Shown here: positions 32,607 through 64,000 of the stretch, piece after piece
Position numbering within the stretch: position 1 is the first letter of the stretch
Layout of the letters: every line of letters begins with the position of its first letter
NCBI GenBank assembly: GCA_012965045.1
Contig: DTSZ01000001.1
Coordinates: 684,024 to 748,023 of the forward strand
Origin: Candidatus Saccharimonadota bacterium
GTDB lineage: Bacteria; Patescibacteriota; Saccharimonadia; Saccharimonadales; DTSZ01
Direction of reading: 5' to 3'
DNA: 64,000 nucleotides
The notes under the pieces: generated by a model
What the model was told of the DNA's origin: nothing
The model's database searches: none
The model's input: the letters and a program-made list of their open reading frames with translations, nothing else
Made by a program: the position numbers and the translations under genes

Positions 32607-32622
32607 AAGGAATATGCTTTAA

Positions 32623-35589: not shown

Positions 35590-35602
35590 GACACTCCTAG
35601 AC

Positions 35603-38968: not shown

Positions 38969-38970
38969 AA

Positions 38971-43633: not shown

Positions 43634-43771
43634 TTAGTGAGTAAGTCGCTTGCGGCCTTTGTCTCGTCGTTTCTTAAGAACAGCTTTGCCGCCCTTTGTT
43701 TTCATACGTGCAAAAAAACCGTGGACTCGCTTACGGTGACGGACTTTTGGTTGGTAGGTTCTTTTTGGCAT
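43634..43771 (-). CDS. rpmH: 50S ribosomal protein L34
   Basis: Not in the ORF track because it is under 60 aa. My translation: [45 protein letters not shown], the L34 signature. Confidence 0.9.
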
Positions 43772-44051
43772 AACTTATACCTTACTTAATGTGGTGCACT
43801 TGATGCAACCTTAATATCGTATAAAAAATATTGTACTATGTTTTCCACATTTACCCAAGTAGTTTCCACAATTCTAACTGGGGTGGCTTTAAATTGTGTA
43901 AAACTCGACCCCAAGATTATACAAAATGTCTACGGGAATTGTATTGTCAATTTGACATTGTGGATAAGTCTAATAAAAACCTATACTCTCTTATACAAAT
44001 CTGTCTGAGTGGTGGTCAGCGAAAATAACTTAAACACGGAGGTAGTTTGCG
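43772..44051. promoter_or_regulatory. candidate oriC / dnaA promoter region with DnaA boxes
   Basis: Boxes TTTTCCACA (43841-43849) and GTTTCCACA (43862-43870), plus a perfect consensus TGTGGATAA (43959-43967, the reverse complement of TTATCCACA). Located between divergent rpmH and dnaA. Confidence 0.55.
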
Positions 44052-45419: not shown

Positions 45420-45734
45420 GGCTTGTGGAAACAACATAGTAAAGCTGTGTGTATTGGTTGTGAACAGCCTTGTTGATAAACTCCGATCTTTCCCCACTCG
45501 ACGTATTTTGGTTGATTCATCCACGGTTTATACAAATGTTACACACCAACTTACACACCACTTATCTACACACATTTTATATAAAAGTAATCTGTTTACT
45601 TTTGTTATACACACCTTCCACACCACCTATAACTTCTACATACTACCTTTAATAAATAATAATGTTGTTAATAAAAGAGCAGACAGTTTAGTAAATATTT
45701 TTAATACTGGGTGGAACACAGGGAGAATCGTTTC

Positions 45735-46835
45735 ATGAAGGTAGAAGTTACCCAAGCAAATTTAAATAAAGCACTATCGATAGTCGGCCGTGTTGCTGGT
45801 GGTAGGACTTCTCTTCCAATCTTATCGAATGTACTGTTGTCGGTTGAAGATAATCAGCTTAAATTAGCTGCCACAAACTTAGAAGTAGCAATTACGCAGC
45901 ATATTGGCGCAAAAGTAAGTGAACCTGGCTCTATTACGGTTCCAGCTCGGTTAATGTCAGATTTTATCAACAGCCTACCAGACAGCAATATTCAACTAAG
46001 CGTAGAAGAAAACAAACTTAGCATTAAGGCCAAGGGTTACTCATCAACAATTAACGGTGTTTCGTCAGAAGAGTTCCCTTCTATTCCAATAGTTTCTGCA
46101 AAAAACCCACTTGTTATAACTGGTAAAAACCTCAAAGGCGTTATTGCTCAGACCATTGTTGCTGCATCAAGCGACGAGGCCCGACCAGTTCTAACTGGTG
46201 TATTTACCTATGTTCATGAAGGCTCACTACTGGCTGTTGCCACGGACAGTTACCGATTAGCTGAGAAAGTGATTCAAGTAAAAACCAATCTTAACGAACT
46301 GTCGGTAATCGTGCCGGCCAAAACCTTTGCAGAAATTCAACGAATTGTGTCCGACGAGGACTCAGTACAACTGCATTTTGACGATGTGCAAATGTTGGTA
46401 GAAGTTGGTGATGTGCAGATTGTTTCTAAATTAATTGACGGTAAATTCCCGGCGTATAAACAACTTATTCCAGAAAAAAGCGATGTGAGTTTTAAGATCG
46501 AACGTAAGGAACTATTAAATGCAACCAAGGTAGCAGCGCTGTTTGCCCGCGAAAGCGCCGGTAGTATTACGTTAGAAGTTTCTGAGGATGACAATTCAGT
46601 TAGTATTGCCTCGGTTGCTAGTCAAGTTGGCAATAATAACTCCACCCTATCAACCACCGTTAAAGGCTCTGGTAGTGTAACTTTAAATTCACGGTATTTG
46701 ATCGACGCCCTTAACGCCATTAACGACCAAGAACTTACATTTCGATTTAGTGGAAGCACAAACCCCTGCATTTTAGAGCCAACCGGTGAAGAAAAACAAA
46801 ACTATCTTCATGTCGTGATGCCTTTGCGTAGCTAG
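45735..46835 (+). CDS. dnaN: DNA polymerase III beta sliding clamp
   Basis: MKVEVTQANLNKAL...TNLEVAI pattern; 366 aa. Start at ATG 45735, preceded by GGGAGAA. Synteny with dnaA. Confidence 0.95.
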   Translation: MKVEVTQANLNKALSIVGRVAGGRTSLPILSNVLLSVEDNQLKLAATNLEVAITQHIGAKVSEPGSITVPARLMSDFINSLPDSNIQLSVEENKLSIKAKGYSSTINGVSSEEFPSIPIVSAKNPLVITGKNLKGVIAQTIVAASSDEARPVLTGVFTYVHEGSLLAVATDSYRLAEKVIQVKTNLNELSVIVPAKTFAEIQRIVSDEDSVQLHFDDVQMLVEVGDVQIVSKLIDGKFPAYKQLIPEKSDVSFKIERKELLNATKVAALFARESAGSITLEVSEDDNSVSIASVASQVGNNNSTLSTTVKGSGSVTLNSRYLIDALNAINDQELTFRFSGSTNPCILEPTGEEKQNYLHVVMPLRS

Positions 46836-46875
46836 TTGAAGGTATGTAAGGTTCGTAAAGTGATAAGGTTGGGTT

Positions 46876-46923
46876 ATGGCAAAAATTAATAGCTTTGAAG
46901 AAATTGAAGCAAGGACTTTATGA
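46876..46923 (+). pseudogene. possible 15-codon remnant of a four-helix-bundle (IVS-protein-like) gene
   Basis: ATG GCA AAA ATT AAT AGC TTT GAA GAA ATT GAA GCA AGG ACT TTA TGA gives MAKINSFEEIEARTL*. Compare the intact copy, MADIKNFEDLNIWQ. It is preceded by the G/T/A-only tract 46838-46875. Confidence 0.3.
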
Positions 46924-46954
46924 ACTTTTTAAACTTTAGAAACCTGTAATCTTA

Positions 46955-47971
46955 ATGATTAAATCAATAAGATTACAAAACTTTCGATGTTTTAATGACA
47001 AATCCTTTGACCTTGATCCAGGCGTAAATTTAATTGTTGGTAAAAATGGAATTGGTAAAACCACTGTTATTGAAGCAATTTACTGCGTATTAAACGGGGG
47101 TTCGTGGCGCGGTAAAGACGATAACCTTATTCAACACACAAAAGACTGGGCTCGAGTAGATCTTTTGCTTCGAGATAAATCAAAACTATCACTTACTCTC
47201 GACAATCGAACTGGACGACTTGTAAAAAAACAACTCATAAATAACGAACCAAAAAAAACCATGTCCTTAAAAACAGTCTTATTCGAACCAGAATTTATTC
47301 TTACATTCACTTCTCAACCAGATAAACGGCGTAACTGGCTTGATGATCTGATTGAGCGTACACATCCTAACTTTAAACAGATTAGAAACAATTACAAACG
47401 GGCGTTATCACAGCGTAACCGACTACTGAAACAACCGACATTTAGCAGTGATTCGATCTTTGTCTGGAATTTAAAATTAAGTGAATACGGAGCTCAGATT
47501 GCCCAGTATCGAGCGAGTATTATCGAGGATATCCAGGGCACTCTTAGCAGCGCTTATAACTCCGTTAGTGGCGGCACAGACACAGTAACAGCTTTATATC
47601 AAAACCAGTTTCCTGTTGAATCGTATTCTACTGCTCACCTACAAAAACTCGAAGATGCTATCGAAAAAGACAAAATTGTTGGCTTTACGACTAGCGGGCC
47701 TCATCGAGAAGACATTGTGTTCAAACTTAACAACGAACTAGTACTACAAACTGCTTCCCGGGGCGAAGTTCGCTCACTTGCCATGGCGCTTAAAAAAATT
47801 GAACTACAGTTATTAAAAGACGAGACAGTTATTGAATTATTTGACGATGCGTTTAGCGAGCTCGACTCTGTCAGGTCATCGCGCTTATTACAAAATGAAC
47901 AGAATCAAACTATTGTTACAAGTGCTGAAACTAGAAAAATTGGCCACTCTATAAAATTGGTAGCCACGTGA
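46955..47971 (+). CDS. recF: DNA replication and repair protein RecF
   Basis: MIKSIRLQNFRCF...GKNGIGKTTVIEAI Walker A; SMC-like signature region; synteny dnaA-dnaN-recF. Confidence 0.9.
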   Translation: MIKSIRLQNFRCFNDKSFDLDPGVNLIVGKNGIGKTTVIEAIYCVLNGGSWRGKDDNLIQHTKDWARVDLLLRDKSKLSLTLDNRTGRLVKKQLINNEPKKTMSLKTVLFEPEFILTFTSQPDKRRNWLDDLIERTHPNFKQIRNNYKRALSQRNRLLKQPTFSSDSIFVWNLKLSEYGAQIAQYRASIIEDIQGTLSSAYNSVSGGTDTVTALYQNQFPVESYSTAHLQKLEDAIEKDKIVGFTTSGPHREDIVFKLNNELVLQTASRGEVRSLAMALKKIELQLLKDETVIELFDDAFSELDSVRSSRLLQNEQNQTIVTSAETRKIGHSIKLVAT

Positions 47972-49232
47972 CATTATATTCGTAAATAGAAGCACCCCGT
48001 TGCTCGAAATAGGCCTCCACGGCGTTGATAGCCTCGGTTCTTTGTGAAGAGGAAATCGCAACTTCGAATCGATCACCGTTTTTATAATATGCTACATAAT
48101 ATAGAGGTAGTTGGTATTGCGTAGTCGACTCTTCAAACAGAGGCGCCTGTGAAGTTGACGTTAGTATAGTTTGCGATACTTCAGGCGTAAATGTTATGAA
48201 TGAACCTTGTACATATAATGTATGAGTGTTTAGTGTTGATTCAATAAGTTCAAGATTTAAGATTTTTTCTTCGGGAATCCCCTCAAGATGATAAGTCAGC
48301 GAATCATCATCGGCTGGCATATGTCGCAATGTGCGTTTTTCAGAGTTTAATATATGCAAATCACCATCAGACAAGACATAGTTTCCTGGAAAAACATCAC
48401 TTATTACTTCTGTGGTTCCATTTTCATCAAAAATAAATAGTTTTTCTGGATTGAGCTCTTCGAATCCAACATCTTGCGATAAGACTATGAAGTCGCTCCT
48501 ATACCTTTCTACCTTCTGCTGTACGCTACCTTCGCTGTTTAAGTCGAGCTGCTTAAAGCCACTTTCATCGTACGAATATAATTTCCTTGAAACAGCAGAA
48601 TCCAAGGTAAAAAAGCGGGCATCAGACTCAAAGAAAACTGGTTGATACGGCGTATCGATTGTAAATAATTGTTGTTCAGACTTTGCATTAACCGACCGAC
48701 TAAATACTGCATATTCTTCACCATGAAGCTCGGAGACAACAGTTTTAGTATAAATGAATGCCTGTAAGTCATCTGACCAAACAGGCTTACCCATAGAGTC
48801 ATTAATACTTAGATTTGATACAGGCGACATATTAGCACCTGATCCATCAACTATGTACCACAGTGGTTGACCCGTATCATCTTCACCAACAATAAAATTC
48901 GTATTGTAATAATTCGGCGAAGATAATTTAACAGCAATTTGATTATCACCCCAAACCATATCAACGGGCTTTGACCAGAATAAATTATTTGAAATTTTTG
49001 TTATATCACCATTAGCATTGAGGCTGTAAAATGCCCCAGCAGCATAAAACTTAATTTCACCATCTTTGGTGGATTTAAAGTCCGCCTCAGCGAATATTTG
49101 GCTATGAAGATATAGAGGTGTGGTCGAATTCCGAACACTAACTATTAAAAAAACTATCGCCACTATTAGCAATAGTGCGACAGAGCCCCAAATGATACCT
49201 CGTTTATTTTTAGAGAATAATTTATTCACCAC
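47949..49232 (-). CDS. membrane-anchored extracytoplasmic protein, last gene of the T4SS-like operon
   Basis: 427 aa. N-terminal TM (IIWGSVALLLIVAIVFLIV), then a beta-rich domain. 11-nt overlap with the upstream gene. No family recognised; a VirB8-analogue role is speculation only. Confidence 0.6.
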   Translation of the reverse strand: MVNKLFSKNKRGIIWGSVALLLIVAIVFLIVSVRNSTTPLYLHSQIFAEADFKSTKDGEIKFYAAGAFYSLNANGDITKISNNLFWSKPVDMVWGDNQIAVKLSSPNYYNTNFIVGEDDTGQPLWYIVDGSGANMSPVSNLSINDSMGKPVWSDDLQAFIYTKTVVSELHGEEYAVFSRSVNAKSEQQLFTIDTPYQPVFFESDARFFTLDSAVSRKLYSYDESGFKQLDLNSEGSVQQKVERYRSDFIVLSQDVGFEELNPEKLFIFDENGTTEVISDVFPGNYVLSDGDLHILNSEKRTLRHMPADDDSLTYHLEGIPEEKILNLELIESTLNTHTLYVQGSFITFTPEVSQTILTSTSQAPLFEESTTQYQLPLYYVAYYKNGDRFEVAISSSQRTEAINAVEAYFEQRGASIYEYNVTWLPIL

Positions 49233-50592
49233 TTCTCCTTTGTGCTTCTTCTAATACTGCTTGTAGATATGTCTCACCAGGGTCTGCTTTGCCGACGGGA
49301 CTTGGGCAGTGAAGAGGATCTGTTTGGTAATGGCCCACCACGCCGATCAAGGCTTCAGGTTCGTTTACTAGTGGAATATCAAAGCGTCTACTCAGATCAA
49401 CCACTGTATTTACAACCGAATCGAATTGTTCGGGGCTATTTAACAACTTCTCTTCATGTTTGCTGACGTCATTAGGAAATCCGTTTATACTCTCGATTTC
49501 TATGCCAATTGTTCTAGAGTTAACGCCACATGCGTGTGCAGTAAGTGTGTTTAAAGGCTCAACAAGCTTGTACATACCCCCTTCTTCGTCTGCATATAGC
49601 TGAACAGAACAACAGTTACCTGGCCGCCCCTCTATGCCCTGAACAAAGTCCGCAACGCTATTATGATTTCCGGCTGTCCAGTGTAAAACTATTGCTGTAG
49701 GATCTATTTCTGACCCCGAGAAAGATATAAAATCAATATAATTGGCTGTGCTTGATGAACAAGATCCAGAAGCGCCAGACAAGTCAACGTATTCAGTAGG
49801 CCCTAGCGGTGCATCCTGGTCGGCCCATGCATAATGCAGTATATCTCCGCTGTCTGGTGTTTTTATTGCAGCTTCAAGTTCTAAAAATGCCTCTGGCGAT
49901 AAACCAGAAACTCGACCGGTATATTCTGGCGGAGTGCCATCTATAAAACCACGCCAATAATCAGGAGGGTTACTTCCACCTTGGTCATTTGTTCCCGTCC
50001 ATGGGGCTGGCCCGGATTCAATAACTGCAGTAACAACGCTTTTATTAGTCCGAGGATTACTCACAAGAACTCTAGGGTGATTCTGGTAAAACGCAATATC
50101 TTCCTCTGGCCTGTCTACGCTCTGACTTTGGCCGCTCCAGGCCCAGTCGACGTATCTCCAGCGCATATTTATATACCATTGTTCTTCTTCGGGGACATTT
50201 GTGGGCAGAGCTCCAGCTCCACCACCACCGCTCCCACCGGTGCCGGCAAAACCATTTTGAGCTTCGAGCGGCACATTGGTGAGCTCATAGTGTCTCGATA
50301 TGCTTCCACCATCGCCTTCAGGTCCACCTACTGGAAGATGTTGCTCCAGGCCAGTTCCACCACTGGTCGCCGGAAGTATGTGACCATCCAGCTCATCGCC
50401 AAGCCCGCCACCCGAAGAGCATGCTGCTGGACCGCTTTGCGTATCAATATATGGGGCGCCAACATCAAGTGCTCTTTTTTGTGCCTCTGACAAAGCAGCA
50501 GCTTTCGGTGAGTAGCCGTTGCTAAATAAGAAATTGAAGTTCAAGACAAAAACTAATAGTAAGATACTAATATTTTTAAAAACAATTTTCAT
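49222..50592 (-). CDS. secreted peptidoglycan hydrolase: RlpA/DPBB-like N-domain plus N-acetylmuramoyl-L-alanine amidase (Amidase_2/PGRP) C-domain
   Basis: Signal peptide. VLVSNPRTNKSVVTAVIESGPAPWTG resembles double-psi beta-barrel lytic domains. C-terminal IVLHWTAG...HACGVNSRTIGIEIES...VVGHYQTDP...CPSP is the Amidase_2 pattern. ATGA overlap with the upstream gene. Confidence 0.75.
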   Translation of the reverse strand: MKIVFKNISILLLVFVLNFNFLFSNGYSPKAAALSEAQKRALDVGAPYIDTQSGPAACSSGGGLGDELDGHILPATSGGTGLEQHLPVGGPEGDGGSISRHYELTNVPLEAQNGFAGTGGSGGGGAGALPTNVPEEEQWYINMRWRYVDWAWSGQSQSVDRPEEDIAFYQNHPRVLVSNPRTNKSVVTAVIESGPAPWTGTNDQGGSNPPDYWRGFIDGTPPEYTGRVSGLSPEAFLELEAAIKTPDSGDILHYAWADQDAPLGPTEYVDLSGASGSCSSSTANYIDFISFSGSEIDPTAIVLHWTAGNHNSVADFVQGIEGRPGNCCSVQLYADEEGGMYKLVEPLNTLTAHACGVNSRTIGIEIESINGFPNDVSKHEEKLLNSPEQFDSVVNTVVDLSRRFDIPLVNEPEALIGVVGHYQTDPLHCPSPVGKADPGETYLQAVLEEAQRRSGE

Positions 50593-53500
50593 GGTGTGTG
50601 CTCCGGCCCATCTGGGATGTTTAGGTCCACATGAAAGTGATCTCTGTGATTTGCGATGCAGTATGAATTGATCGGTGTGCCTTTCTCTTCTGCGTAATTT
50701 AAAATCGCTCTCGTTGTTCCATCCTGCCCGTCAATATGGCTTGAGGTAATAGGCACACCACTTGGCTTCGCTGTGGTCCCTCTGTCGCACCACCAAATAT
50801 TATCAATTAAGCCGGTGTCTACAAATAGCTTGCCTAAATCTATTGTAGCTTGAGCGCTGAAGGAGGAGCTGTCATATGAAGCAGCCCATGGTGAGCCTTG
50901 AGCCAGTACATCAACAGCATGGCCCGTGTTGTGGGTGTTGTGCCCGGCTGCGTTCAAGTCACCTATATATAACTGAGAATTCGGGTAAGCCTCGTGGTAG
51001 GCCAGCCCGACGCTGTAAAGAACACAAATCAGCTCATATTGTCCGTATCTGCGGCTTTCATTTGAGTAGATAAAGTATTCATCATTTGGAGGTTCAGGCA
51101 TTTTATAGTAGGTGAACCCACTCACTACACGAGTTTCTAATGAATCTTGGCTCGGACAGGTTAACCCCTCTAAGCCAACACCAGACCCAGCACTAGCTCC
51201 TGGGTTACTGCCGCTTGGAAGACCAATATCTTCACATGCGTTGTCGTCGGCGCTGGAAAGACAGGACATTTCTTGAAGAGCTCCCATATCGCGCAAGTAA
51301 ATACGAAGATTTTGGTGAAAGCGTTCACCAGGTAATTTATAACAATGGTCTTCTGGTGGGAATTTTTCTTTGTCTTGTCGGGGGTTATGCCACGGGTCCG
51401 AATAATCTCTGTAAAAAACACCAACACAAACGCCATCAGACTTAGTGTTAGTCAGTTCTCGTGACATTTCGTGCAGTATTCGGATAATCTCACAAATGTC
51501 TGAGGTGCGTGAGTTAATCTGACACATATTTATTTCTCTGCCATTAACTATTTTGCTATCCGCACCGATCTCTGCGGATGTCCACCCAGCATCTCGTGCT
51601 ACTTGGCGTTTTTCTGCCTCTAAACTAGTGCGTTCATCGTTTTGCTTTTCTAATACATAGTTAGTCGTACCCTGGCAAAAATCAGCCTTTCTTTCATCTT
51701 CTGGGTGGCGCGCACCAACCGCAGAACTTGGTCTTACTGAGCCATCTTCTTCAATAATCATGCCGTAGCATTGTTCTGCAAATTCACTAGAATACTCGCG
51801 GTATTTATTATGGTCATCAAAAGTGTCTACTAAACTAGGGAAACAGCTTGGATTGTCTCTGAAGATATAATTGTCGTAAATGCAGGGGTCGTTATTAACT
51901 TCTTCAGATTGAGAATGTTCGATCTCTTCATCTGTCCATGCTACCCGGTACAAGCCATTATATTGTTGAGCGACGCTGGTTATGCCAGTTGTACCAGCAT
52001 AGGCGGCACCAGAAAACGGCTTAATGATTTGGTCGGGCATAATTGCGGCAATGGCCCGGCCGCCATATTGAACAGGGTTTTCGCTGTAGTTGTTTCGAAT
52101 AAGCAGCTGAGCGACTAATGATCGAGGTTCTTTTATGTCAAAAATTCGAGCAAAAAATGGTTTTTGGGCGTACTCATTTCGCTGCTCCTCAAGCGCGCGT
52201 CCGTTAATTTTGGCCTCATCAGCTTCGCTAATTTTAAGCGCGCCCTTTGAGTAGGCATCTTCGTTGTTTGATAAAAGTTTTCCTACATCAGCCACATCCC
52301 AATACCCTGGTCCAGCAATATCAAATGGAATCGGTTGGCCAATGTAGCCCCTGACTGCCATATCGATAATATTAGACAACAGCGGACCGGCTGCTGTTTC
52401 GATCAATGCCGAAATTACTCCACCATCAACGATATCAATAAAAAATCCAGCTGGACCATTTACAAAATCGCAGGTTGTTTGAAGCCCAGGTATATTGCTA
52501 ATAAAGTTAGATATCGGGTCTGATGTAGCGTCGAGTCGCGGCACGGTGTCTTCGGCTTGCTGTATACCACCCTCTTCACCTAATTTGTCTTTTAGTTTTG
52601 CAGATGCTGTCCAGTTGACTTCTTTTTCTGGAATAGTAATGGTCTTTCCGTCCTCATCTTTTACGGTGTAGGACTCTTCTTTTAGGTTAAATTGCTCAGC
52701 GTCTATCGCCGCCTCTTGGAGGTCGATTCCGGGGTCACTGGCTTTAAACTGCGAGCCAAGCGACTCGCCCTTTGCTGCCATTCGCATTGATTGCAGCCAC
52801 ACTAAGTTAAAATGCGCTGAGTCAATTTGCGAACTTATGCCTTGGGCTAAGCAAAGTCCTCCTATTATTCCAACGCCCCCAGCCGCTAAAGCCGTCCGCC
52901 CAGAGCTTACTTTTTCTGACCCTATGCCATCCCCGCTATTAGCATTTTGACTGCCGGCTTCTATTTCTGGATTCAATTCACGAATGGTGCCATCACTGTC
53001 AGTGTATGTTGAAGTCAAACCAACCCTCGCATCAACACCGTCTGTGATAGCACTTTGTCGGCTTTCTCTGACTTTTTGGCGGAATTCTTCAAAGGAAAAT
53101 TTATCGTCTAGACTAGAGCGAACATCTCCCAGCCAACGGTAATTAACTCCAGCACGTATGCGCAAACGCCGCTTACCCAGCACGCCTGCATTTTTTATAT
53201 CTTGATTGACTACCCGAGTAGCGACGTCTATCGCTTTTCTACCATCTCTGGTTTGGAGGTCGGTCAACTCAAGTCTGCCAGTCTCAGTATTTAATGTAAG
53301 TCTGTCGCCAAATTCTTCACGGAATTCATTCACTGTTCGTGTATCGCTTGGATCTATACTGATAGCACCAAGACGATTATTTGCTCCTCTGCTGTAATCT
53401 AGTTCAATACCACGCGCCCCCATAATATCTGTAATTGCGTCGGCTTGTTTATTCCCTAAAATACTCAGTCGTCGATTTTCTGGATTATTTGGATTGCGCA

Positions 53501-54134
53501 AAAATCGATACATACGGGTAGCAGCTGAAACATCTTGATCTTCAACAAAGGGTGCGTGAAATTGGTCAAGTAGTTCTGCGAAGTGAACGAATTGTAGGGG
53601 TCCTTGAAGTATTGAGCCTAGTCCAAAAAGCCCACCAGCGATTAAAATTCCAACTAATCCGTGGCGACGTCTGTATAAAAAACCACGGGTTTCAGTTTTT
53701 GCATTTTTTAGCAGCTTGTTTTCTCGAACCAAACCGCCGCTGGTTTGAACAGACTGATCTTTAGGTTTTTTGTCGTTATTATTTAGGTGTTCGTATTGCG
53801 AAGCCGTATACGGTCCACTCGAGCCGTTGCCAGAAGCTCCATTGGTGTTTTTCTTCTCCATAGGACTTTGAGTCCCAGGCTGTTGGTTGAATGGACTAGG
53901 ACGAATTCCACTGAAGTTTTCATCATTTTTTGTTTGTTCATTTGGCGAGCTCTGATTGGCAAAATCCTCTATTTCTTGCAGCTTATTTTCACCTCCAGAA
54001 TTTGCGTAGTTCTCAATATGCCCTATGCCTTTGTCGAGGGGGTTTTGTGCTGATGGCTGATTAAATATATCCTCAAGTCCATTTGCCGAAAGATCTTTGC
54101 GTTTCTTCGGATCTTTGAGGTTACCGCCAGCCAC
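50589..54134 (-). CDS. giant (1181 aa) membrane-anchored protein with C-terminal LAS-type metallopeptidase (MepA/M15-like) domain
   Basis: GTG start overlapping the virB4 stop (TAGTG). Low-complexity N-terminus and a TM (LVGILIAGGLFGLGSIL). C-terminal metal ligands H-x-x-G-H-A-V-D (HNTGHAVDV) and HRDHFHVDL, as in LAS-fold cell-wall endopeptidases. Confidence 0.7.
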   Translation of the reverse strand: MAGGNLKDPKKRKDLSANGLEDIFNQPSAQNPLDKGIGHIENYANSGGENKLQEIEDFANQSSPNEQTKNDENFSGIRPSPFNQQPGTQSPMEKKNTNGASGNGSSGPYTASQYEHLNNNDKKPKDQSVQTSGGLVRENKLLKNAKTETRGFLYRRRHGLVGILIAGGLFGLGSILQGPLQFVHFAELLDQFHAPFVEDQDVSAATRMYRFLRNPNNPENRRLSILGNKQADAITDIMGARGIELDYSRGANNRLGAISIDPSDTRTVNEFREEFGDRLTLNTETGRLELTDLQTRDGRKAIDVATRVVNQDIKNAGVLGKRRLRIRAGVNYRWLGDVRSSLDDKFSFEEFRQKVRESRQSAITDGVDARVGLTSTYTDSDGTIRELNPEIEAGSQNANSGDGIGSEKVSSGRTALAAGGVGIIGGLCLAQGISSQIDSAHFNLVWLQSMRMAAKGESLGSQFKASDPGIDLQEAAIDAEQFNLKEESYTVKDEDGKTITIPEKEVNWTASAKLKDKLGEEGGIQQAEDTVPRLDATSDPISNFISNIPGLQTTCDFVNGPAGFFIDIVDGGVISALIETAAGPLLSNIIDMAVRGYIGQPIPFDIAGPGYWDVADVGKLLSNNEDAYSKGALKISEADEAKINGRALEEQRNEYAQKPFFARIFDIKEPRSLVAQLLIRNNYSENPVQYGGRAIAAIMPDQIIKPFSGAAYAGTTGITSVAQQYNGLYRVAWTDEEIEHSQSEEVNNDPCIYDNYIFRDNPSCFPSLVDTFDDHNKYREYSSEFAEQCYGMIIEEDGSVRPSSAVGARHPEDERKADFCQGTTNYVLEKQNDERTSLEAEKRQVARDAGWTSAEIGADSKIVNGREINMCQINSRTSDICEIIRILHEMSRELTNTKSDGVCVGVFYRDYSDPWHNPRQDKEKFPPEDHCYKLPGERFHQNLRIYLRDMGALQEMSCLSSADDNACEDIGLPSGSNPGASAGSGVGLEGLTCPSQDSLETRVVSGFTYYKMPEPPNDEYFIYSNESRRYGQYELICVLYSVGLAYHEAYPNSQLYIGDLNAAGHNTHNTGHAVDVLAQGSPWAASYDSSSFSAQATIDLGKLFVDTGLIDNIWWCDRGTTAKPSGVPITSSHIDGQDGTTRAILNYAEEKGTPINSYCIANHRDHFHVDLNIPDGPEHTP

Positions 54135-56107
54135 TAGAAGACTCCTGGGTTAGCGCCTCCACCAGGCGTATCGGTTGGTTTGTTTGCTTGTTCTTGCTGG
54201 ATGCCAGACGGAGCGAGCGGGGTTTGGGGAACTTCTGGAGCCTTTGGTTGTGTAGCTTGCTGCTGTCGGCGCAGTTCGGCACCTTCGGCAAGTTCTTGAG
54301 CTTGCTTCATCTGCTTAATCTGTTCAGGATTGGTGCTAATAAGTTCAGTCTCTGTTGGGCTGGCGTCAATTTTAATGTGAATGTGGTTTTGGCCGGCAAA
54401 AAACAAGCCTTGTCCAACCGGGAAGTTGGTTAGGCGCTTAGTTTCCTCAGAGGTGAGCTTAAAGGTGTTGCTGACAATTTCTACGGCTGATGGAGCTTGT
54501 TTAAGAAGGATTTGCATCGACGAGTTGCTAACCACTGCCCGACCCATTTTGTTACTCAAAAAGTCTTCGACATCTTGGCTGATAGTAGTGAGGCCAAGGT
54601 AATATTTACGGGCTCGTTTTGCCAAGCTAAATAAGAAGTTGGCGCTGTCTTTATATTTCATTAACTGCCAAGCTTCATCAACAATTAACATGCGCTTTCG
54701 CTGGTCAGAGCGGACTTTGTTCCATATATAACTCAACACAATATACATGGCGACTGGCCGCAGCTCGTCTTCGAGGTCACGGATATTGAACACCACAAAT
54801 TTATTGTTGATATCGACATTGGATTGCTGGCTAAAAATACCAGCAAAGGTGCCTGTTGTGTATTTACGTAGTAATTGGGCTAGTTGAGGACCAGTACCGC
54901 CGGTATTGAGCAGTGTGTTGTAGAGGTCAATTATGGTTGGCGGTGTCGAATTATGAGTAAGCGGGTCGTTGGTGATTCCAGCCTTGTGGTAGGTCTCAAT
55001 CAAGGCTTGGTCTAGATCGGCTTCTGCTGCGGCACCAATGTTGCCACCCATCATCAGCCGCAGTAGGCCATGCAATGTCACCAGGTTTGAACGCAGGGCA
55101 TTGTCGGCTTCTTCAGAGTCGACAACTTGCGGCAAATCAAACGGATTAATGTGAGTTTTCGAATTAAGGCTGAGTCGAACGTAGCTGCCGCCAACTGCTT
55201 CGGCTAATTTGTGATATTCGTTTTCGGGGTCAATAATTATTATTTCGGTACCAAGCATTAGGTTGCGTAGGGCCTCGAGCTTAACAGTAAACGACTTACC
55301 TGCACCGGACTTTGCAAATACCACCATGTTAGCGTTTTCTAGGCTAAAGCGATCAAAAATAACCAGGCCGTTATTGTGCATATTGATACCGTATAAAATG
55401 CCATTTTCTTGAGACAGGTCGGCTGATGTAAATGGGAAACTGGTAGAAATTGCTCCAGTATTCATGTTCCGACGGACCGATAATTGGTCTAGGCCTTGTG
55501 GGATCGTAGAGTTAAAGGCTTGCTCTTGCTGAACGGTAGCAGGTTTTGAGTACACTAGCTGCTGGCCAAGCACGCTTTCTACCTTATGCTGAACGTAGTT
55601 AAGCTCATCTAGGCTGTCGGCGTAGATCGTAAAGTACAGACTAAATCTAAAAAATCGCTCTTCACCTACTTGAAGTTTGTCTCGCAGTTCCTCGGCGTCG
55701 GTAATAGACGCTTGCAGGCCTGGGTCACGAACTTTGCCTTTTTCGGCATTAATCATAAGACTGGCTTCGAGTTGACCAACTTTTTTGCGAAGGTTTTCTA
55801 ATACCACTTGACTGTCGACTGGGTTAATATACATCGACAAATCCATTACTTCGTCCATGTTGATAATGGGCGAAAGCCAGCCGGTGTAGATCTGCCGAGG
55901 ATAGCCGTAGACATAAAAACTTCTTGCGTAACGGGTGCCTATTCGAAAGTAAGTTGATTCGTATTCAAGACTACTTGGAGCAATAAAGTCTCGAAGCGCC
56001 GACACGCCTTGCTGGAAACTAGCCTGCACCTCTTGTTGCTCGCGTAGCTGTTGCTGTTGAGCCAGCGTCATTGGGTCTTGTTGGTTTTTTTTGCCGAATA
56101 ATGCCAT
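54134..56107 (-). CDS. virB4: VirB4/TraE-type type IV secretion ATPase
   Basis: Walker A FAKSGAGKSF, Walker B MLIVDEAWQL, and the N-terminal YPRQIYTGWL region typical of Gram-positive VirB4 (PrgJ/TcpF-like). Confidence 0.9.
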   Translation of the reverse strand: MALFGKKNQQDPMTLAQQQQLREQQEVQASFQQGVSALRDFIAPSSLEYESTYFRIGTRYARSFYVYGYPRQIYTGWLSPIINMDEVMDLSMYINPVDSQVVLENLRKKVGQLEASLMINAEKGKVRDPGLQASITDAEELRDKLQVGEERFFRFSLYFTIYADSLDELNYVQHKVESVLGQQLVYSKPATVQQEQAFNSTIPQGLDQLSVRRNMNTGAISTSFPFTSADLSQENGILYGINMHNNGLVIFDRFSLENANMVVFAKSGAGKSFTVKLEALRNLMLGTEIIIIDPENEYHKLAEAVGGSYVRLSLNSKTHINPFDLPQVVDSEEADNALRSNLVTLHGLLRLMMGGNIGAAAEADLDQALIETYHKAGITNDPLTHNSTPPTIIDLYNTLLNTGGTGPQLAQLLRKYTTGTFAGIFSQQSNVDINNKFVVFNIRDLEDELRPVAMYIVLSYIWNKVRSDQRKRMLIVDEAWQLMKYKDSANFLFSLAKRARKYYLGLTTISQDVEDFLSNKMGRAVVSNSSMQILLKQAPSAVEIVSNTFKLTSEETKRLTNFPVGQGLFFAGQNHIHIKIDASPTETELISTNPEQIKQMKQAQELAEGAELRRQQQATQPKAPEVPQTPLAPSGIQQEQANKPTDTPGGGANPGVF

Positions 56108-57039
56108 TAGAACAGATTCTCCTTTAAGTCAGGTCGTGGTGCATCGCCTTCGCCGCGGGTAATGTATGGCTGTTCAACGCCGCTCGAACTACTGAGTGGT
56201 TGGGTTGTAGCTGTGTCGGGGTTGTAGACATCGTAGTAGAGCTCAATAAGCTCCTGAGTGTTGAGTGGTATTGCCTGTACGCCCATTTGATTCATTGACT
56301 CAAGCACAGCTTGGACGCGGTTTTTTAGCTCGGTTTTAGCTTTAATTAAATCCTCTTCGTTAATGGTGATAGTTGGAGTTTTACGGTTAAAGACAGCTGT
56401 AAACTTGCCAGCTTTGTTAGTTATATTTTGATGAGCAGTTGGCTCAAACGGAACAATCACAAAAAATTGCTTATCCATAATATTAGCTGTTTGCGAAAGG
56501 TATTCGATGTAGGCTAAGTAGTCTTCCATAAGTAGGCCAAGCAAAATATTGTCTTGGTTTTCGCGCAGCGTATTGAGTTTGTTTAGGTAATTTCTCAAAT
56601 CAACTTTGCGTGAGCGCATAGTAATTTGAACTTGAAAATACAATGAATTTAAAAAACCTTGGTAGGCCGATTCCACGCCGCCTCGTTCTTGCGGACTCAT
56701 AAGGTCAAAGTTAATGCTTTGAGCTAATACAACCGCTCGGTAGCTTCCATCTTTCATAATGACAATACCATCGCGAATTTCAGCAATTTGCAGACTGTTT
56801 TGGGTGCTGTTTGGATTGGTTGGCTTAGGTTGTTCGTGGGTTGTTTGTGGCTGCTGATTTTGAGGAGCTGGTTGCTGCTGGATTTGAGGCTGCTGAAATG
56901 CCTGCTGCGGCTGAGGGATTGGTTGTTGCTGGCCTAGGTTTTGCGCAGGGACTGGTTGTGGTTGAGTAACAGGATTATTTTCCGGTGTAAAAACCGGCTG
57001 CGCTGGTTGTGCTGCCTGTTGATTTTCTTGAGGATTCAT
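56107..57039 (-). CDS. Q/P-rich protein with C-terminal domain resembling the extreme N-terminal module of Gram-positive VirB4 proteins
   Basis: The first ~85 aa are Q/P low complexity. They are followed by IAEIRDGIVIMKDGSYRAVVLAQSINFDLMSPQE...FLNSLYFQVQI. TAATG overlap with the virB4 start. Confidence 0.55.
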   Translation of the reverse strand: MNPQENQQAAQPAQPVFTPENNPVTQPQPVPAQNLGQQQPIPQPQQAFQQPQIQQQPAPQNQQPQTTHEQPKPTNPNSTQNSLQIAEIRDGIVIMKDGSYRAVVLAQSINFDLMSPQERGGVESAYQGFLNSLYFQVQITMRSRKVDLRNYLNKLNTLRENQDNILLGLLMEDYLAYIEYLSQTANIMDKQFFVIVPFEPTAHQNITNKAGKFTAVFNRKTPTITINEEDLIKAKTELKNRVQAVLESMNQMGVQAIPLNTQELIELYYDVYNPDTATTQPLSSSSGVEQPYITRGEGDAPRPDLKENLF

Positions 57040-57126
57040 TTGCGTAAAAAACCGCCCACCTGTTTAGAAACTGTTCTCTTCCCTTACCTCTGTATTGTAA
57101 GGCAAAAGCTATGCTTATTCCAGTGG

Positions 57127-58014
57127 TTAGTGCTGTATATTTAGCTCGTTGGAGTCAGTGCTGTGCTCGATTTCCATTTCTTGAGCTCGAGCGGCAATGG
57201 AACTGACAGATAGTTCTTGATTTTGCTCCAGCTCTTTTATTCGCTGCTGTAGTGCTTTGTCGTCTTGGGTCGGCTGGACTGGTTCGACCTGCTCACTAGT
57301 TGTTTGATATGGGTTTACATAGTTCTGACTGCCTAAAGTCGAAGAGCCTTGATCAGCAACCGCACTGGCCTGATTGCGTAAGCGTTCGATTAATTCGTCT
57401 CGAGCGGTTTGTTCGCTTTGAGTTGTTTGTTGGTTAAACGCCTGGGCTACTGGGTTGGTGGCGTCGTCATAGATGTCGTCATTTGTAACGTCTTCCGGCG
57501 CCTGATCATAGACTGTTGTGACTTCACTCGGTTTTATTAGACGATCGTCGTCGGCTAAACCTGCACCCAGTGGCTCTTGCAGGTCGGCTCGTTTAGTTGC
57601 CCAACCACGAGTGTCGACAATTTGGGCTAATTGTTTTAGTTGGCTACGAACTTGGTCTTGGCTGCGGCCATCGCCCAAGTGAGTTTCGATCTTTTTTGGA
57701 ACTTTAATGGTTACTTGCTCGACTATGCCGTCGCGCGACCACAGTCGTTTACGCGGCCTAAACCAAAAATTTAAATAGGCAATCACCTTGTTTTCTACTG
57801 GTTGATCTTTTGGTCGGTATACCCCAATCAAACCACAAACAAAAATTACTGGAAACAACGGTATGGCTGCAAAAAAGCTGACAGTGGCTACTAACTGAAA
57901 CGCCACGAATATAGCAATTATAGTTACGATCAAAAAAACAAATTGCTTAAACGTAAACGGCCCAAGTAGCTTGTCCTCTGCCTCAACATCCTGTGGAACT
58001 TTGTAGTAGCCCAT
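57127..58014 (-). CDS. PrgI-family (VirB3-like) T4SS membrane protein with long C-terminal extension
   Basis: MGYYKVPQDVEAEDKLLGPFTFKQFVFLIV plus two TM helices matches the PrgI family N-terminus. There is an additional ~190-aa hydrophilic tail. Confidence 0.7.
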   Translation of the reverse strand: MGYYKVPQDVEAEDKLLGPFTFKQFVFLIVTIIAIFVAFQLVATVSFFAAIPLFPVIFVCGLIGVYRPKDQPVENKVIAYLNFWFRPRKRLWSRDGIVEQVTIKVPKKIETHLGDGRSQDQVRSQLKQLAQIVDTRGWATKRADLQEPLGAGLADDDRLIKPSEVTTVYDQAPEDVTNDDIYDDATNPVAQAFNQQTTQSEQTARDELIERLRNQASAVADQGSSTLGSQNYVNPYQTTSEQVEPVQPTQDDKALQQRIKELEQNQELSVSSIAARAQEMEIEHSTDSNELNIQH

Positions 58015-58032
58015 GTTTTTAGTTTAGCAAAA

Positions 58033-60756
58033 CTATTTCTTATTTCCTTTTTCAGCTTCTTCTACTAATCGTCTGACTCTTTCAGGTGTTAACTTCTCTG
58101 CCGTTAGTGTGCTTGAATTTCCATTAGGAACAAATATTTTACTTGGTTCTGCTTTCGTCTCTTCGCTTGGCGGCGGTGCCGGATGCGGTGAAGGTGGAGG
58201 GGTTGGAGGTGGGGTCTGCGGAACAGCGGGAGGGCTGGGACCTGTTTTTAGAGTCGATGCAAGCCCGTAAGCCCTTTCTCGTGCGGAATTAATAGGATGG
58301 TCTGCCTGATCATTAGGGCCGGAGTTGAGCACACTATGTGCAAGCTCTCGCACATCAGCGTTTGGTGAATTTAGACCGTAACCGAGTTGCGTTGTAGCCC
58401 TGGCAACTTTTTCATCATCTCCAGAAAGCAAGTCGTTGAGTATCAATTGTTTCGTCTCTGGAAGATTAGCAGTAGATTGGTGCATTGCAGCAAACTGTTC
58501 TCCTCTAAGGCTGTGAATCTGTTTAGCCAATTCATTGTTGTTGACTTTATATGTTCCGTCTTGTTGTTTTTCCATTGCGGCAACATGGTACTGGCCAGTT
58601 TGCATTGCTTGGCTTTTGAGACGGTTAACATGCGCTTCTCGCTGATCTTTTTTAAGTCCCTTTAGAGATCCAGCAGATTGAAGCACTTTTTCATCGAGCC
58701 AACCATTTTGAGCTGCGGCAAATTGTGCCGCCTGAATCGATCGGGTAGATGTAGCGTGATCACCAACACCTCTAGCTGTATCAATTAATTCGTCTTTACT
58801 TAAATTACTGAGAGTTTTGGTTTCTTCGGCAATGCCAGCCGCGTCGATGTTGCGTCGTTGGTACTTACTGTTACCTATTTGTGCAGCTCTGCGCGCAAAA
58901 CGGTTATTGCCAGTTTTGTTCACACCAAGTGCTGTTTCGTTTCGATATCTTTCGCGTTTCTTCTTCGCAAAACCACCACCGATGCCGGCTCCACGCTTAC
59001 TTAAGCCACTTGCGAAGTTGCCAGCCATACCCATAGCTTGACCGGCGAACTTAAAGGTAAATGGAATCATAAAATACGGCGCAATCACAGCTATCAAGCC
59101 AATTAATTGGAATATTGCAGAGGCCGTGCTTTCGGATTGACCGAAATTGGCAATGAGGTGAGTAAATTCGTTACCGATTGCAGCAAATGTTTCGATAGGA
59201 TTAATAGTAGAACCGAGCGTGCGTGCGCCTGCCCCTAAGATGCCGCCCATAAAATCACCAACGGTTATTAGCCCGACTATTAAGGGGTACATAAACCCAA
59301 GCTTTAAGAATGTACTAAACCACTGCTGGGCGTAGCGCTGCGTGTTTGGAAGAATCCAGGCCACCATAGCAATTGGTGAAATAAGAACTAAGAACACCAA
59401 CAGAACTTGTCTGAGCCCAAGCGTAAACAATACCCCTAAAAGACCGAGCAGCGCAGCGCTCAAAATAGGCAAAGCAAAGAATAATATGACACCAGCTACA
59501 GCACCAACCGCAATAACTACGGTTCCTGCGTTAGCCCAAAAGCCAGAGACTGACAAATCAAGGCTGAATGACCGGCCACCATCCATTGGTGACAAAATAA
59601 GACCACGCACACCAGCACCAAGTACGTTCATAAGATCTGAAAATATAACACATAAGAAATAACTGAGCTGAACCAATATTATAGCTACAACAAGCCGAGG
59701 CAGCATTTTTTTAACTGTGTAGGCGTCGAGGTTTATCGATAAAGACTGTGCAAAAATAACTACAAATAGCGCAATGACAAACAATATGTTGGCGATGTTT
59801 CTAAACCGTGACCAGCTGTCTCGTATTAACGTAGCGCTGCCATCGTCTTGATTAAGAGTGACTACACTGGATTCAGATTCATCTCCTGTAGAGGCGTTAA
59901 AGCGTACCGTTTCGGCATTCAGTGCGTTAAATTGCAGCATCGGTGCAATGAAGTTATTGAATAAACCTGAAAGACCTTCGTTTAAAAAGTTAAAAATTGG
60001 ACACAATACCCAGGCCAAGACACCACCTTCCGATTCGCAGACGAGGAGATCAGCGTTTTCTGCGTCCAATTCTTCTTGATCATCTTCAATTGCATTCACA
60101 CAATTGGCTACACGCTGGATCTTTACTTCTCTAGTATTGTTGTTGTCTAGGGCGGCAAGTAAACAATTTTCAAGCTGCTCCGATAGTGAGCTAACCTCGA
60201 TTCCGGAATCTTCTATACAAAATTCAATATCAGAATTAGATATGTAACAGTCTACAAAAGCAAGCGCGGCGGTTGCGTCTTCTGCTGGAGTCTCGTCATC
60301 CGTAGGACCGGATTCCAGAAATTCTATTAGTACATTGCTTGAGGTAACATTTTCAAGAACCACTTCACCTATCTCTGGCGTTGCCGCTCCTATAGCTATA
60401 TCTGGTTCCGCCACATTCATATAAAATGAGTAGCCAAGCCCGGCATTAGTAAATGCGTAAATACCATCAGTAGAGGTAGTTTCTGATAAAGTCGCGTCCA
60501 GGCAGAACAGCCTCTCATCTGGCAGATCACCGCCATGCAGCCGTATTGCTACTATCTGATCATTATGCCCAAATAGGGGCTCGAAATCAGTATTTATATA
60601 TGACCCACATTCACCATCTAGTGGAGCAATAATATATTCTGCATTCGCAGATTCTAATATGTCGGTTATAGCACTTACTTCTTTGCTAAACAGGGGTGCG
60701 GAAAATAATAAAAGAAAACTCACGATAAAGACAGTAATTTTTATTTTTCCACTCAT
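58033..60756 (-). CDS. VirB6/TrbL-like polytopic T4SS channel protein, paralogue B (907 aa)
   Basis: Signal peptide, ~300-aa acidic ectodomain, at least 7 TM helices including LISPIAMVAWILPNTQRYAQQWF (TrbL/VirB6-like), and a long cytoplasmic tail ending in a proline-rich PPPTPPPSPHPAPPP segment. Confidence 0.65.
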   Translation of the reverse strand: MSGKIKITVFIVSFLLLFSAPLFSKEVSAITDILESANAEYIIAPLDGECGSYINTDFEPLFGHNDQIVAIRLHGGDLPDERLFCLDATLSETTSTDGIYAFTNAGLGYSFYMNVAEPDIAIGAATPEIGEVVLENVTSSNVLIEFLESGPTDDETPAEDATAALAFVDCYISNSDIEFCIEDSGIEVSSLSEQLENCLLAALDNNNTREVKIQRVANCVNAIEDDQEELDAENADLLVCESEGGVLAWVLCPIFNFLNEGLSGLFNNFIAPMLQFNALNAETVRFNASTGDESESSVVTLNQDDGSATLIRDSWSRFRNIANILFVIALFVVIFAQSLSINLDAYTVKKMLPRLVVAIILVQLSYFLCVIFSDLMNVLGAGVRGLILSPMDGGRSFSLDLSVSGFWANAGTVVIAVGAVAGVILFFALPILSAALLGLLGVLFTLGLRQVLLVFLVLISPIAMVAWILPNTQRYAQQWFSTFLKLGFMYPLIVGLITVGDFMGGILGAGARTLGSTINPIETFAAIGNEFTHLIANFGQSESTASAIFQLIGLIAVIAPYFMIPFTFKFAGQAMGMAGNFASGLSKRGAGIGGGFAKKKRERYRNETALGVNKTGNNRFARRAAQIGNSKYQRRNIDAAGIAEETKTLSNLSKDELIDTARGVGDHATSTRSIQAAQFAAAQNGWLDEKVLQSAGSLKGLKKDQREAHVNRLKSQAMQTGQYHVAAMEKQQDGTYKVNNNELAKQIHSLRGEQFAAMHQSTANLPETKQLILNDLLSGDDEKVARATTQLGYGLNSPNADVRELAHSVLNSGPNDQADHPINSARERAYGLASTLKTGPSPPAVPQTPPPTPPPSPHPAPPPSEETKAEPSKIFVPNGNSSTLTAEKLTPERVRRLVEEAEKGNKK

Positions 60757-60958
60757 TTACTCTTGATAATATCAAATCAAAACGTAAGCGTATAGAGCAC
60801 GAGTTGAGGTCAACTCAACTAATTTACAATATTCATTTTCCATATCACAACCTAAAGGGTTCCAAGAATTAGAATAAATTGCCGAACATCCACAATGTAT
60901 ATAATCCATGCTGTTAGTTACGAACTAAAAACTGCAAACTGCGAAATACGATCTAGCC

Positions 60959-63850: not shown

Positions 63851-63857
63851 TATTTAT

Positions 63858-64000
63858 TTAACTCCCACCTGCTCCGGCAGCTTCTTCAAGGGCCTGGCCT
63901 TGTTGGTTTTGTTCAGATAAGTCTTGGAAATCTTCTGGACTGACCGCAGAATCGCCTGCGTCAAAATCTTCTCCTAGTTCTTCTTCTAGTTCTTCAGTAT
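63858..64000 (-). CDS. 3' end of an ORF entering from beyond the window (acidic C-terminus ...EELEEELGEDFDAGDSAVSPEDFQDLSEQNQQGQALEEAAGAGGS)
   Basis: Open frame from the window edge to TAA at 63860-63858, 7 nt upstream of the next gene's ATG. Probably part of the same operon. Confidence 0.4.
   Translation of the reverse strand, partial: TEELEEELGEDFDAGDSAVSPEDFQDLSEQNQQGQALEEAAGAGGS

Follow-up and report, generated by a model that had tools for sequence, protein, structure and literature searches.

We analyzed a 64-kb stretch of DNA (hereafter the window) from contig DTSZ01000001.1 of a Candidatus Saccharimonadota bacterium and found that the minus-strand genes between positions 47949 and 64000 very probably encode a resident chromosomal type IV secretion system (T4SS) of a Saccharibacterium (class Saccharimonadia), a system assigned to the Patescibacteria clade among the monoderm T4SSs related to MPF-FATA. 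Saccharibacteria are very small bacteria that grow attached to other bacterial cells. The characters of this clade found at the locus are a VirB4 ATPase, PrgI together with a TrsD-like protein, VirB6-like proteins, a pilin array and proximity to dnaA, with no relaxase or type IV coupling protein (T4CP) nearby. An earlier note, made from the sequence alone, had proposed a resident non-conjugative T4SS of Gram-positive type linked to the episymbiosis of Saccharibacteria, and this proposal is upheld by the relatives of the VirB4 protein, by a synteny comparison in which the layout recurred in 52 of 53 informative loci, and by the literature. The locus is real and of an already known kind, its main points having been published since 2020.

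Organization of the T4SS operon

Eight complete open reading frames (ORFs) of 427, 456, 1181, 657, 310, 295, 907 and 963 aa were found on the minus strand in 47949-64000, together with the last 143 nt (63858-64000) of a ninth gene. Coordinates are those of the window, whereas "extended" coordinates and those given as L081 refer to the same contig beyond 64000; L081 was identical to the window over the two stretches compared, at the start of the 963-aa gene and in the final 150 nt before position 64000. Completed on the contig, the ninth gene encodes 627 aa, and its end lies 7 nt before the start codon of the 963-aa gene. The co-directional block measures ~17.8 kb, from 47949 to ~65741 (extended), and the full locus including the pilin side comprises 16 genes over ~21.6 kb. 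The genes of the operon, listed in the order of their transcription, are as follows.

63858-64000 in the window (last ~47 codons), minus strand: first operon gene, 627 aa, complete at L081 8110-9993
60959-63850, minus strand: putative VirB6-like extended channel protein, paralogue 1, 963 aa (PF19590 TrbL_3, precomputed)
58033-60756, minus strand: putative VirB6-like extended channel protein, paralogue 2, 907 aa (PF19590 TrbL_3, precomputed)
57127-58014, minus strand: PrgI/VirB3-like membrane protein, 295 aa (PF12666 PrgI)
56107-57039, minus strand: putative TrsD-like protein, 310 aa (NF041427, NF045971 and NF045975 below cut-offs; PF26593 precomputed)
54134-56107, minus strand: VirB4 ATPase, 657 aa (NF045971 conju_CD1110)
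50589-54134, minus strand: membrane protein with a probable C-terminal LAS-type (VanY/MepA-like) zinc peptidase, 1181 aa
49222-50592, minus strand: secreted or anchored peptidoglycan hydrolase, 456 aa (PF01510 Amidase_2)
47949-49232, minus strand: orphan membrane-anchored ectoprotein, 427 aa, last operon gene (no family)

The junctions read from the sequence were TAATG at 56107, TAGTG at 54134, ATGA at 50589-50592 and an 11-nt overlap at 49222-49232 between the 427-aa and 456-aa genes, and the other intergenic gaps in the operon measured 7, 202, 18 and 87 nt. The 202 nt that separate the VirB6 genes gave no significant fold (z = -0.2). Promoter consensus scans around the divergent region performed no better than shuffles, and terminator scans gave nothing interpretable. 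The GC content of the locus (0.447) is slightly higher than that of the rest of the window (0.412), yet it is inside the normal spread of the window (0.345-0.470). These observations agree with the earlier note, in which at least nine co-directional genes, the same four junctions and a GC content like that of the bulk genome had been described.

VirB4 motor, TrsD-like protein and PrgI

The assignment of VirB4 is supported by its match to NF045971 of the CD1110 family (E 5e-119, 398.7 bits versus a cut-off of 325), by the Pfam domains PF19044 P-loop_TraG (2.6e-27), AAA_10 and DUF87, and by a match in the PDB to the VirB4 C-terminal domain (4ag5, 1.1e-52). The protein also matches NF045975, the Mbov_0397-type VirB4 model, with 1.6e-87 and 294 bits, under the cut-off of 590. 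VirB4 is without its usual N-terminal domain, as the alignment begins at position 168 of the NF045971 model. In the 310-aa protein encoded immediately upstream, a Q/P-rich stretch of ~80 aa precedes a VirB4-N-like domain that matches positions 110-174 of the NF045971 model (E 1.8e-8), positions 20-199 of 201 in the TrsD model NF041427 (E 2.9e-6) and positions 99-282 of the Mycoplasma VirB4 model NF045975, all three below the curated cut-offs; its precomputed Pfam assignment is PF26593 TraC-like. Since the 310-aa protein matches the N-terminal part of VirB4 and VirB4 itself starts at model position 168, VirB4 appears to be split over two genes, which have one nucleotide in common at the stop and start codons (TAATG). 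The evidence for the 310-aa protein as a detached, TrsD-like VirB4 N-terminal domain is weaker than that for VirB4 but consistent, and the split-VirB4 "TrsD" arrangement has already been published (PMC12102498).

The PrgI/VirB3-like protein matches PF12666 over residues 5-91 (E 1.7e-11, 44.9 bits versus a cut-off of 27) and consists of an N-terminal transmembrane (TM) hairpin followed by an acidic, Gln-rich tail of ~200 aa. The PrgI and TrsD-like genes lie directly upstream of virB4; they were detected by tblastn in 70 and 78, respectively, of 80 related loci, and their order is kept in 70-78 of the 80. The VirB4 and PrgI/VirB3 assignments made earlier from the letters alone thus passed curated thresholds, and the Q/P-rich protein then described as VirB4-N-like received TrsD and VirB4-N matches, albeit below the cut-offs.

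VirB6-like proteins and the first operon gene

The 963-aa and 907-aa proteins are ~20% identical, and the 907-aa protein aligns with the family of the 963-aa protein. Both have a signal peptide, an ectodomain of ~300 aa, at least five TM helices and a hydrophilic C-terminal domain of ~300 aa, a layout known as "extended VirB6" (PMC12857230). In the 963-aa protein the ectodomain is beta-rich and the C-terminal domain (~350 aa) is helical, whereas the 907-aa protein has a Pro-rich C-terminal tail and nine hydropathy segments including the signal peptide, two of them overlapping. With current Pfam, the 963-aa protein matched PF04610 TrbL below the cut-off (E 0.0048), and no TrbL match was obtained for the 907-aa protein; with NCBIfam, the 963-aa protein matched the CD3337/EF1877 mobilome membrane protein family NF046089 at 2.7e-5, also below the cut-off. 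PF26593 (56107-57039) and PF19590 (58033-63850) are present in the precomputed annotation, and current Pfam-A gave neither at E <= 0.1. An AlphaFold2 (AF2) model of the 963-aa protein built from 13 homologues reached a pLDDT of 57 and a pTM of 0.33, and its best PDB matches in Foldseek were to R388 TrwI/VirB6 (probability 0.93-0.96, E 0.05-0.24, non-significant), a structural likeness that is suggestive. The precomputed family, the sub-threshold hits, the topology and the weak structural match together are consistent with two VirB6/TrbL-like proteins, as had been claimed.

The 627-aa protein has an N-terminus rich in Ala, Glu and Lys, one predicted TM helix (540-558) and an acidic tail. No match to it was found in Pfam or NCBIfam, by tblastn in the 80 related loci, or with a profile of the 230-460-aa ORFs that occupy the corresponding upstream position in relatives.

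Pilin array and upstream flank

Upstream of the 627-aa gene and divergent from it, a 294-aa pilin-like gene and six pilin genes are located at ~65.9-69.5 kb (extended). The six pilins (L081 4316-7106) match PF18895 T4SS_pilin with 31.8-42 bits versus a cut-off of 26.6, and some also match TrbC/VirB2 below threshold. An N-terminal signal-like segment was found in five of the six and a terminal two-helix hydrophobic hairpin in all six; their pairwise identities range from 25 to 56%, with a mean of 34%. The 294-aa protein has a pilin-like C-terminus. All three array proteins tested against NCBIfam (294, 215 and 145 aa) match NF045849, the Mbov_0395 pilin-like family, the 215-aa pilin with 1.7e-10 and 40.4 bits versus a cut-off of 40. 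The statement that no pilin is in view therefore holds for the window and fails for the locus, as the array begins just past the edge.

Past the pilin array, hsp20 is followed by a ComFC/GntX-like phosphoribosyltransferase gene (DZR_2 plus Pribosyltran). This double-zinc-ribbon protein is encoded at L081 2967-3641 (~70.2-70.9 kb) and stands beside the pilin array in at least 27 related loci; the presence of GntX near the T4SS locus of Saccharibacteria was noted earlier (PMC7427843).

Genes downstream of virB4

The 1181-aa protein has two predicted TM segments and carries the zinc-ligand motifs H-x6-D (HNTGHAVD) and H-x-H (HFH). A profile built from 58 post-virB4 positional counterparts matches it over residues 50-1175 (E 1.9e-27), and three database relatives were found. 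Its relatives carry PF02557 VanY (2.7e-14 and 3.1e-7), and the protein itself gave sub-threshold M74/MepA matches (E 0.007-0.008). Because the peptidase region aligned poorly with its relatives in MAFFT, the LAS motifs were called by eye and from the family profile. We concluded that the 1181-aa protein is probably a divergent member of a conserved ~1000-aa post-virB4 gene of Saccharimonadia and a LAS peptidase. The 456-aa protein has an N-terminal hydrophobic segment and a C-terminal N-acetylmuramoyl-L-alanine amidase domain (PF01510 Amidase_2, E 1.4e-10, 42 bits versus a cut-off of 26, residues 297-439), and its position and domain content point to a role equivalent to that of VirB1. No match to the 1181-aa or 456-aa protein was obtained in sequence searches of the PDB.

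The 427-aa protein has one N-terminal TM helix (residues 13-31) and an ectodomain predicted to be mostly beta, and its gene has a GC content of 0.38 versus 0.44-0.47 for the remaining operon. It matched only itself in 5.8 billion clustered sequences and in 1.84 billion representatives read exhaustively, had no match in Pfam or NCBIfam, and gave an unusable single-sequence AF2 model (pLDDT 37.7). At this position, relatives hold variable small or medium membrane proteins. Of the claims made earlier for these genes, the membrane-anchored ectoprotein stands as described, and of the two peptidoglycan hydrolases the amidase is above its cut-off while the peptidase has weaker but consistent evidence. 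The view that most components have no assignable family was too pessimistic, since only the 427-aa and 627-aa proteins are without an assignment.

The interval between virB4 and recF keeps its architecture (~1000 aa, ~400 aa, small protein) in most of the 58 relatives, but not its sequence. By tblastn at 1e-5, the 1181-aa protein was detected in two of the 80 loci, and neither the 456-aa nor the 427-aa protein was detected in any. The 456-, 427- and 627-aa proteins likewise had no match when searched by phmmer and profile against the positional counterparts in the 58 relatives. We surveyed the domains of 77 ORFs of at least 280 aa that lie, in relatives, between virB4 and recF from the second position onward, with the following counts.

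Phage_lysozyme2: 44 of 77 ORFs
Peptidase_C39_2: 11 of 77
M23: 6 of 77
CHAP: 6 of 77
VanY: 4 of 77
Amidase_3: 3 of 77
SLT, glucosaminidase, ELLD and others: a few of 77

Measured against this survey, Amidase_2 at the second hydrolase position is found in the protein of the window alone. The second hydrolase position is thus a slot in which domains are swapped between lineages, with Amidase_2 in this one. It is conceivable, although we rate the idea as doubtful, that the second hydrolase and the terminal ectoprotein form a host-range cassette at the 3' end of the operon, given that VirB4 proteins are 70-77% identical while the hydrolase domains swap and the last gene is replaced outright. If the cassette proteins acted on the host wall or surface, their turnover would track host cell-wall chemistry, and host specificity could be predicted from the sequence of the 3' cassette. 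The relation between the variable cassette and host specificity is one angle worth following.

Conservation across relatives

The VirB4 scan of genome collections confirmed 558 relatives, and synteny and tblastn comparisons were made on 80 retained loci. Nearly all of the retained VirB4 proteins are 70-77% identical to that of the window; all come from assemblies of uncultured organisms, whose titles mostly name Saccharibacteria or Saccharimonadales, and none is from a cultured organism outside the candidate phyla radiation. The recurring gene order is the comF-like phosphoribosyltransferase, hsp20, the pilin array, the 294-aa gene, VirB6 (one or two copies), PrgI, TrsD and VirB4, followed by a hydrolase interval of ~5.5 kb, with a range of 4.2-8.3 kb, and the convergent recF-dnaN-dnaA genes. 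The replication genes were present in 52 of the 53 loci with at least 9.5 kb of sequence downstream of VirB4. The locus is fixed against recF-dnaN-dnaA across the class, and this fixed position indicates vertical inheritance rather than mobile insertion.

Proposed mechanism and alternative explanations

The steps of the proposed mechanism were drawn from the established biology of VirB4, VirB3, VirB6 and VirB1. Hexamers of VirB4 with the separate N-domain, tethered by PrgI, would form a membrane-docked motor that energises assembly of the channel, and the VirB6-like proteins would line this channel in the membrane. The LAS peptidase and the amidase may open the epibiont's own peptidoglycan, and possibly that of the host too, to let the apparatus through, and Sec-exported VirB2-like pilins could polymerise into a pilus or conduit reaching the host bacterium. 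The most likely function would be transport of proteins or macromolecules at the contact between epibiont and host, not DNA conjugation, which is unlikely with neither a relaxase nor a coupling protein. Our leading idea is protein export or two-way exchange at host contact, with import of DNA or nutrients as its main alternative.

Genes for mobility were sought by scanning the window against Pfam, including every ORF of at least 134 aa in 1-44000 at E <= 1e-5 (1e-4 in one scan). In agreement with the earlier note, no match to a relaxase, VirD4/TcpA-type coupling ATPase or integrase family was obtained in the 64 kb, and no relaxase, coupling ATPase or integrase is on record in the 10 kb beyond 64000; the sole P-loop T4SS ATPase found in the scans was VirB4. 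The scan of 1-44000 gave no transposase either. An Rfam search of the whole window returned one tRNA and otherwise no match. This tRNA lies at 19.5 kb, 28 kb from the locus, and neither a tRNA target nor a repeat border was found at the locus in the 64 kb and the additional 10 kb. An ordinary integrative and conjugative element (ICE), or a decayed transfer module, inserted beside the origin would account for the conjugation-type components PrgI, TrsD and VirB6 and for a VirB4 whose best model, NF045971, was built on Clostridioides conjugative elements, and an ancient origin from monoderm conjugative elements has been inferred in a phylum-wide study (PMC12102498). However, besides the missing mobility genes and borders, the system occupies the same site beside recF-dnaN-dnaA in 52 of 53 related genomes, with VirB4 proteins 70-77% identical, and its GC content is similar to that of the flanks. 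The ICE explanation was therefore rejected as extremely improbable.

A machine that works inward, either by ComB-like uptake of DNA or nucleotides or by import of host material, is a less likely but more serious alternative, to which we give a minor share of belief. In its favour, these organisms cannot make nucleotides, and the ComFC/GntX-like phosphoribosyltransferase is conserved beside the pilin array; nucleotide acquisition through the T4SS has been proposed in a review with reference to the H. pylori ComB system (PMC11665869). Against it, no DNA-binding or DNA-processing protein was recognisable in the locus with Pfam and NCBIfam. Moreover, deletion of comEC in S. epibionticum ended competence but left viability unaffected (PMC12857230), which means that import, if essential, would need a route other than the canonical competence channel. 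It is also improbable, and more so than inward transport, that the 1181-, 456- and 427-aa genes are general wall-remodelling or surface genes that share the operon without being T4SS parts. These three are far more divergent than the core, as seen from the tblastn counts given above (2, 0 and 0 of 80 loci), the 427-aa protein is an orphan, and the catalytic domains at the second position swap between lineages. On the other hand, the stop/start overlaps of 1, 4 and 11 nt suggest translational coupling to virB4, and the positional architecture recurs in most of the 58 relatives. Dedicated hydrolases, for example PrgK and CwlT, are normally encoded by Gram-positive T4SSs. In S. epibionticum, the genes for a peptidase and a lysozyme that follow virB4 are essential (PMC12102498).

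Several points weigh against a resident, host-contact T4SS as the explanation of the locus. The assignments of VirB6, TrsD and the LAS peptidase are based on sub-threshold or precomputed matches and on one low-confidence model, and the formation of a pilus is suggested by pilin homology alone. No sequence-level match to a VirB8-like protein (PrgL/TraM, NTF2-fold) was found among the locus proteins with Pfam or NCBIfam, and reliable models for comparison with the VirB8 fold were obtained neither for the 627-aa and 427-aa proteins nor for the first ~1000 residues of the 1181-aa protein. The search for mobility genes spans 74 kb of a 929,678-bp contig, which leaves room for a distant T4CP or relaxase; T4CP homologues lie far from virB4 in many Patescibacteria (PMC12102498).

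Position of the operon next to the probable replication origin

The operon converges on the replication genes, which were all identified above the NCBIfam equivalog cut-offs.

46955-47971, plus strand: recF (TIGR00611, 1.1e-75)
45711-46835, plus strand: dnaN (TIGR00663, 2.3e-85)
44052-45419, plus strand: dnaA (TIGR00362, 1.3e-150)

As noted earlier from the sequence, the locus converges on recF beside the oriC region: recF and the 427-aa gene share 23 nt at their 3' ends (47949-47971), which leaves no room for a terminator between these convergent genes, and 2.5 kb separate dnaA from the operon's 3' end. With jag, yidC, rnpA and rpmH on the far side of dnaA, the region 43135-47971 forms the classic oriC neighbourhood jag-yidC-rnpA-rpmH / dnaA-dnaN-recF. 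DnaA-box-like sites were found upstream of dnaA and between dnaA and dnaN, at 43841, 43959 (perfect), 45471, 45562 and 45605. In virtually every relative, transcription of the core operon runs toward dnaA; this orientation, which the 2025 phylum-wide paper (PMC12102498) does not discuss, might have a functional meaning. If oriC lies at dnaA and the DnaA boxes, the core operon would be head-on to replication. No clear origin signal was obtained from the GC skew in the window, and the bias in gene strand was also weak; the head-on reading therefore rests solely on the position of dnaA and the DnaA boxes, and we give it little weight.

Other genes in the window

The region 1-44000 contains housekeeping genes, a large polysaccharide-synthesis region, a heliorhodopsin gene and a gene for a cutinase-VWA-fn3 protein. 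The heliorhodopsin gene (17462-18232, minus strand; PF18761, E 8e-87, full-length) is located beside cupredoxin and alpha/beta-hydrolase genes. The polysaccharide-synthesis region (19748-38330) encodes nucleotidyl transferases, a Wzy-like ligase, a priming sugar transferase, several GT4 glycosyltransferases, a pyruvyl transferase, an FkbM methyltransferase and an ABC-2/Wzt exporter. Its part at 30-37 kb (30182-36718) has a markedly low GC content of 0.35-0.37 versus 0.42, suggestive of a surface-glycan cassette that was acquired horizontally or evolves fast. The 812-aa protein encoded at 38956-41394 (plus strand) combines a cutinase domain (1.3e-24) with VWA and fibronectin-III/purple-acid-phosphatase-N domains and is possibly an esterase or adhesin that is secreted, which would be of interest if the hosts of the epibiont are rich in mycolic acids or lipids. 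The regions 10459-14232 and 27061-29837 hold a 476-aa ORF, a run of 226-, 198- and 273-aa ORFs and an adjacent pair of 202 and 722 aa, in which the stop and start codons overlap by one nucleotide; none of these ORFs had a Pfam match at E <= 1e-5, and none resembles a T4SS ATPase or relaxase.

Comparison with known systems

In 2020, VirB4, VirB6, PrgI and an array of four to six small proteins with Sec signals were reported as conserved across Saccharibacteria (McLean, 2020; PMC7427843). Transposon sequencing later demonstrated that the genes of the orthologous cluster SEML1_0006-0019, pilins included, are essential for the epibiotic growth of S. epibionticum, and the cluster was described as resembling Gram-positive conjugative systems with no recognisable relaxase or coupling protein (Wang, 2023; PMC10633639). 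In a phylum-wide study of 2,474 Patescibacteria virB4 genes, these formed a monophyletic clade related to MPF-FATA, with TrsD as the most abundant associated component along with PrgI/VirB3, VirB6 and VirB2 arrays of 2-11 genes; few relaxases were present, in strain ML1 the genes that follow virB4 were noted to include essential ones for a peptidase and a lysozyme, and the frequent proximity to dnaA/dnaN was proposed to raise gene dosage (Quiñonero-Coronel, 2025; PMC12102498). The Patescibacteria system is summarised in a 2025 review of T4SSs (PMC12857230), and a 2024 perspective calls the role of the T4SS "completely unknown" (PMC11665869). According to these papers, Patescibacteria are estimated to make up about a quarter of bacterial diversity; the system is conserved across Saccharibacteria and widespread in Patescibacteria, and it is the first T4SS reported to be essential for the growth of its bearer. 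The window provides a further environmental example and makes the question of the substrate no more testable. Its small additions to the cited literature are the domain-swapping slot with Amidase_2, the orphan terminal gene, the match to Mycoplasma ICE pilins and the direction of the core operon toward dnaA.

The closest known counterparts are the T4SSs of Southlakia epibionticum ML1 (SEML1_0006-0019) and Nanosynbacter lyticus TM7x, with which the present locus shares VirB4, a TrsD-like protein, PrgI/VirB3, VirB6, hydrolases after virB4, six divergent VirB2-like pilins, the absence of a relaxase or coupling protein from the cluster and a place beside dnaA; the comparison with S. epibionticum was made by component set and order. 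Pilin identities here have a mean of 34% and a maximum of 56%, against 25% and 54% reported. In contrast to these two strains, the window belongs to an environmental lineage and has two VirB6 paralogues, a feature of only some relatives, an unrelated 627-aa first gene, Amidase_2 in place of the phage-tail-lysozyme hydrolase, and an orphan last gene.

With the MPF-FATA systems (pCF10 Prg/Pcf, pGO1 Trs, CTn2/CD1110-type and ICEBs1), the locus has in common a CD1110-family VirB4, PrgI, a TrsD-like protein, polytopic VirB6-like proteins, dedicated multi-domain wall hydrolases and the lack of an outer-membrane core complex. It differs in that no relaxase, T4CP, PrgB-type adhesin or recognisable VirB8-like (PrgL) protein was found, in its fixed place on the chromosome, and in its array of VirB2-like pilins, which are described as lacking in Gram-positive systems (PMC12857230).

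The Mycoplasma ICE genes Mbov_0395 and Mbov_0397 offer another case of a pilin-like gene beside virB4 in a wall-poor monoderm lineage, although the VirB4 of the window is below the NF045975 cut-off (294 versus 590 bits). Mycoplasma ICEs are mobile, with their own transposase and T4CP. The pilin match bears on whether VirB2-like pilins were co-opted from diderms or came from a monoderm ancestor, and it argues mildly against the view that they were necessarily borrowed from diderm systems.

Finally, the Ptl system of Bordetella pertussis and the VirB system of Brucella are likewise T4SSs without a coupling protein, and they serve protein export; this analogy was drawn for the array of small Sec-signal proteins by McLean, 2020 (PMC7427843). 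However, both are of the diderm MPF-T class and possess VirB7, VirB9 and VirB10, and the small proteins of the present array are VirB2-like pilins (PF18895) rather than toxin subunits.

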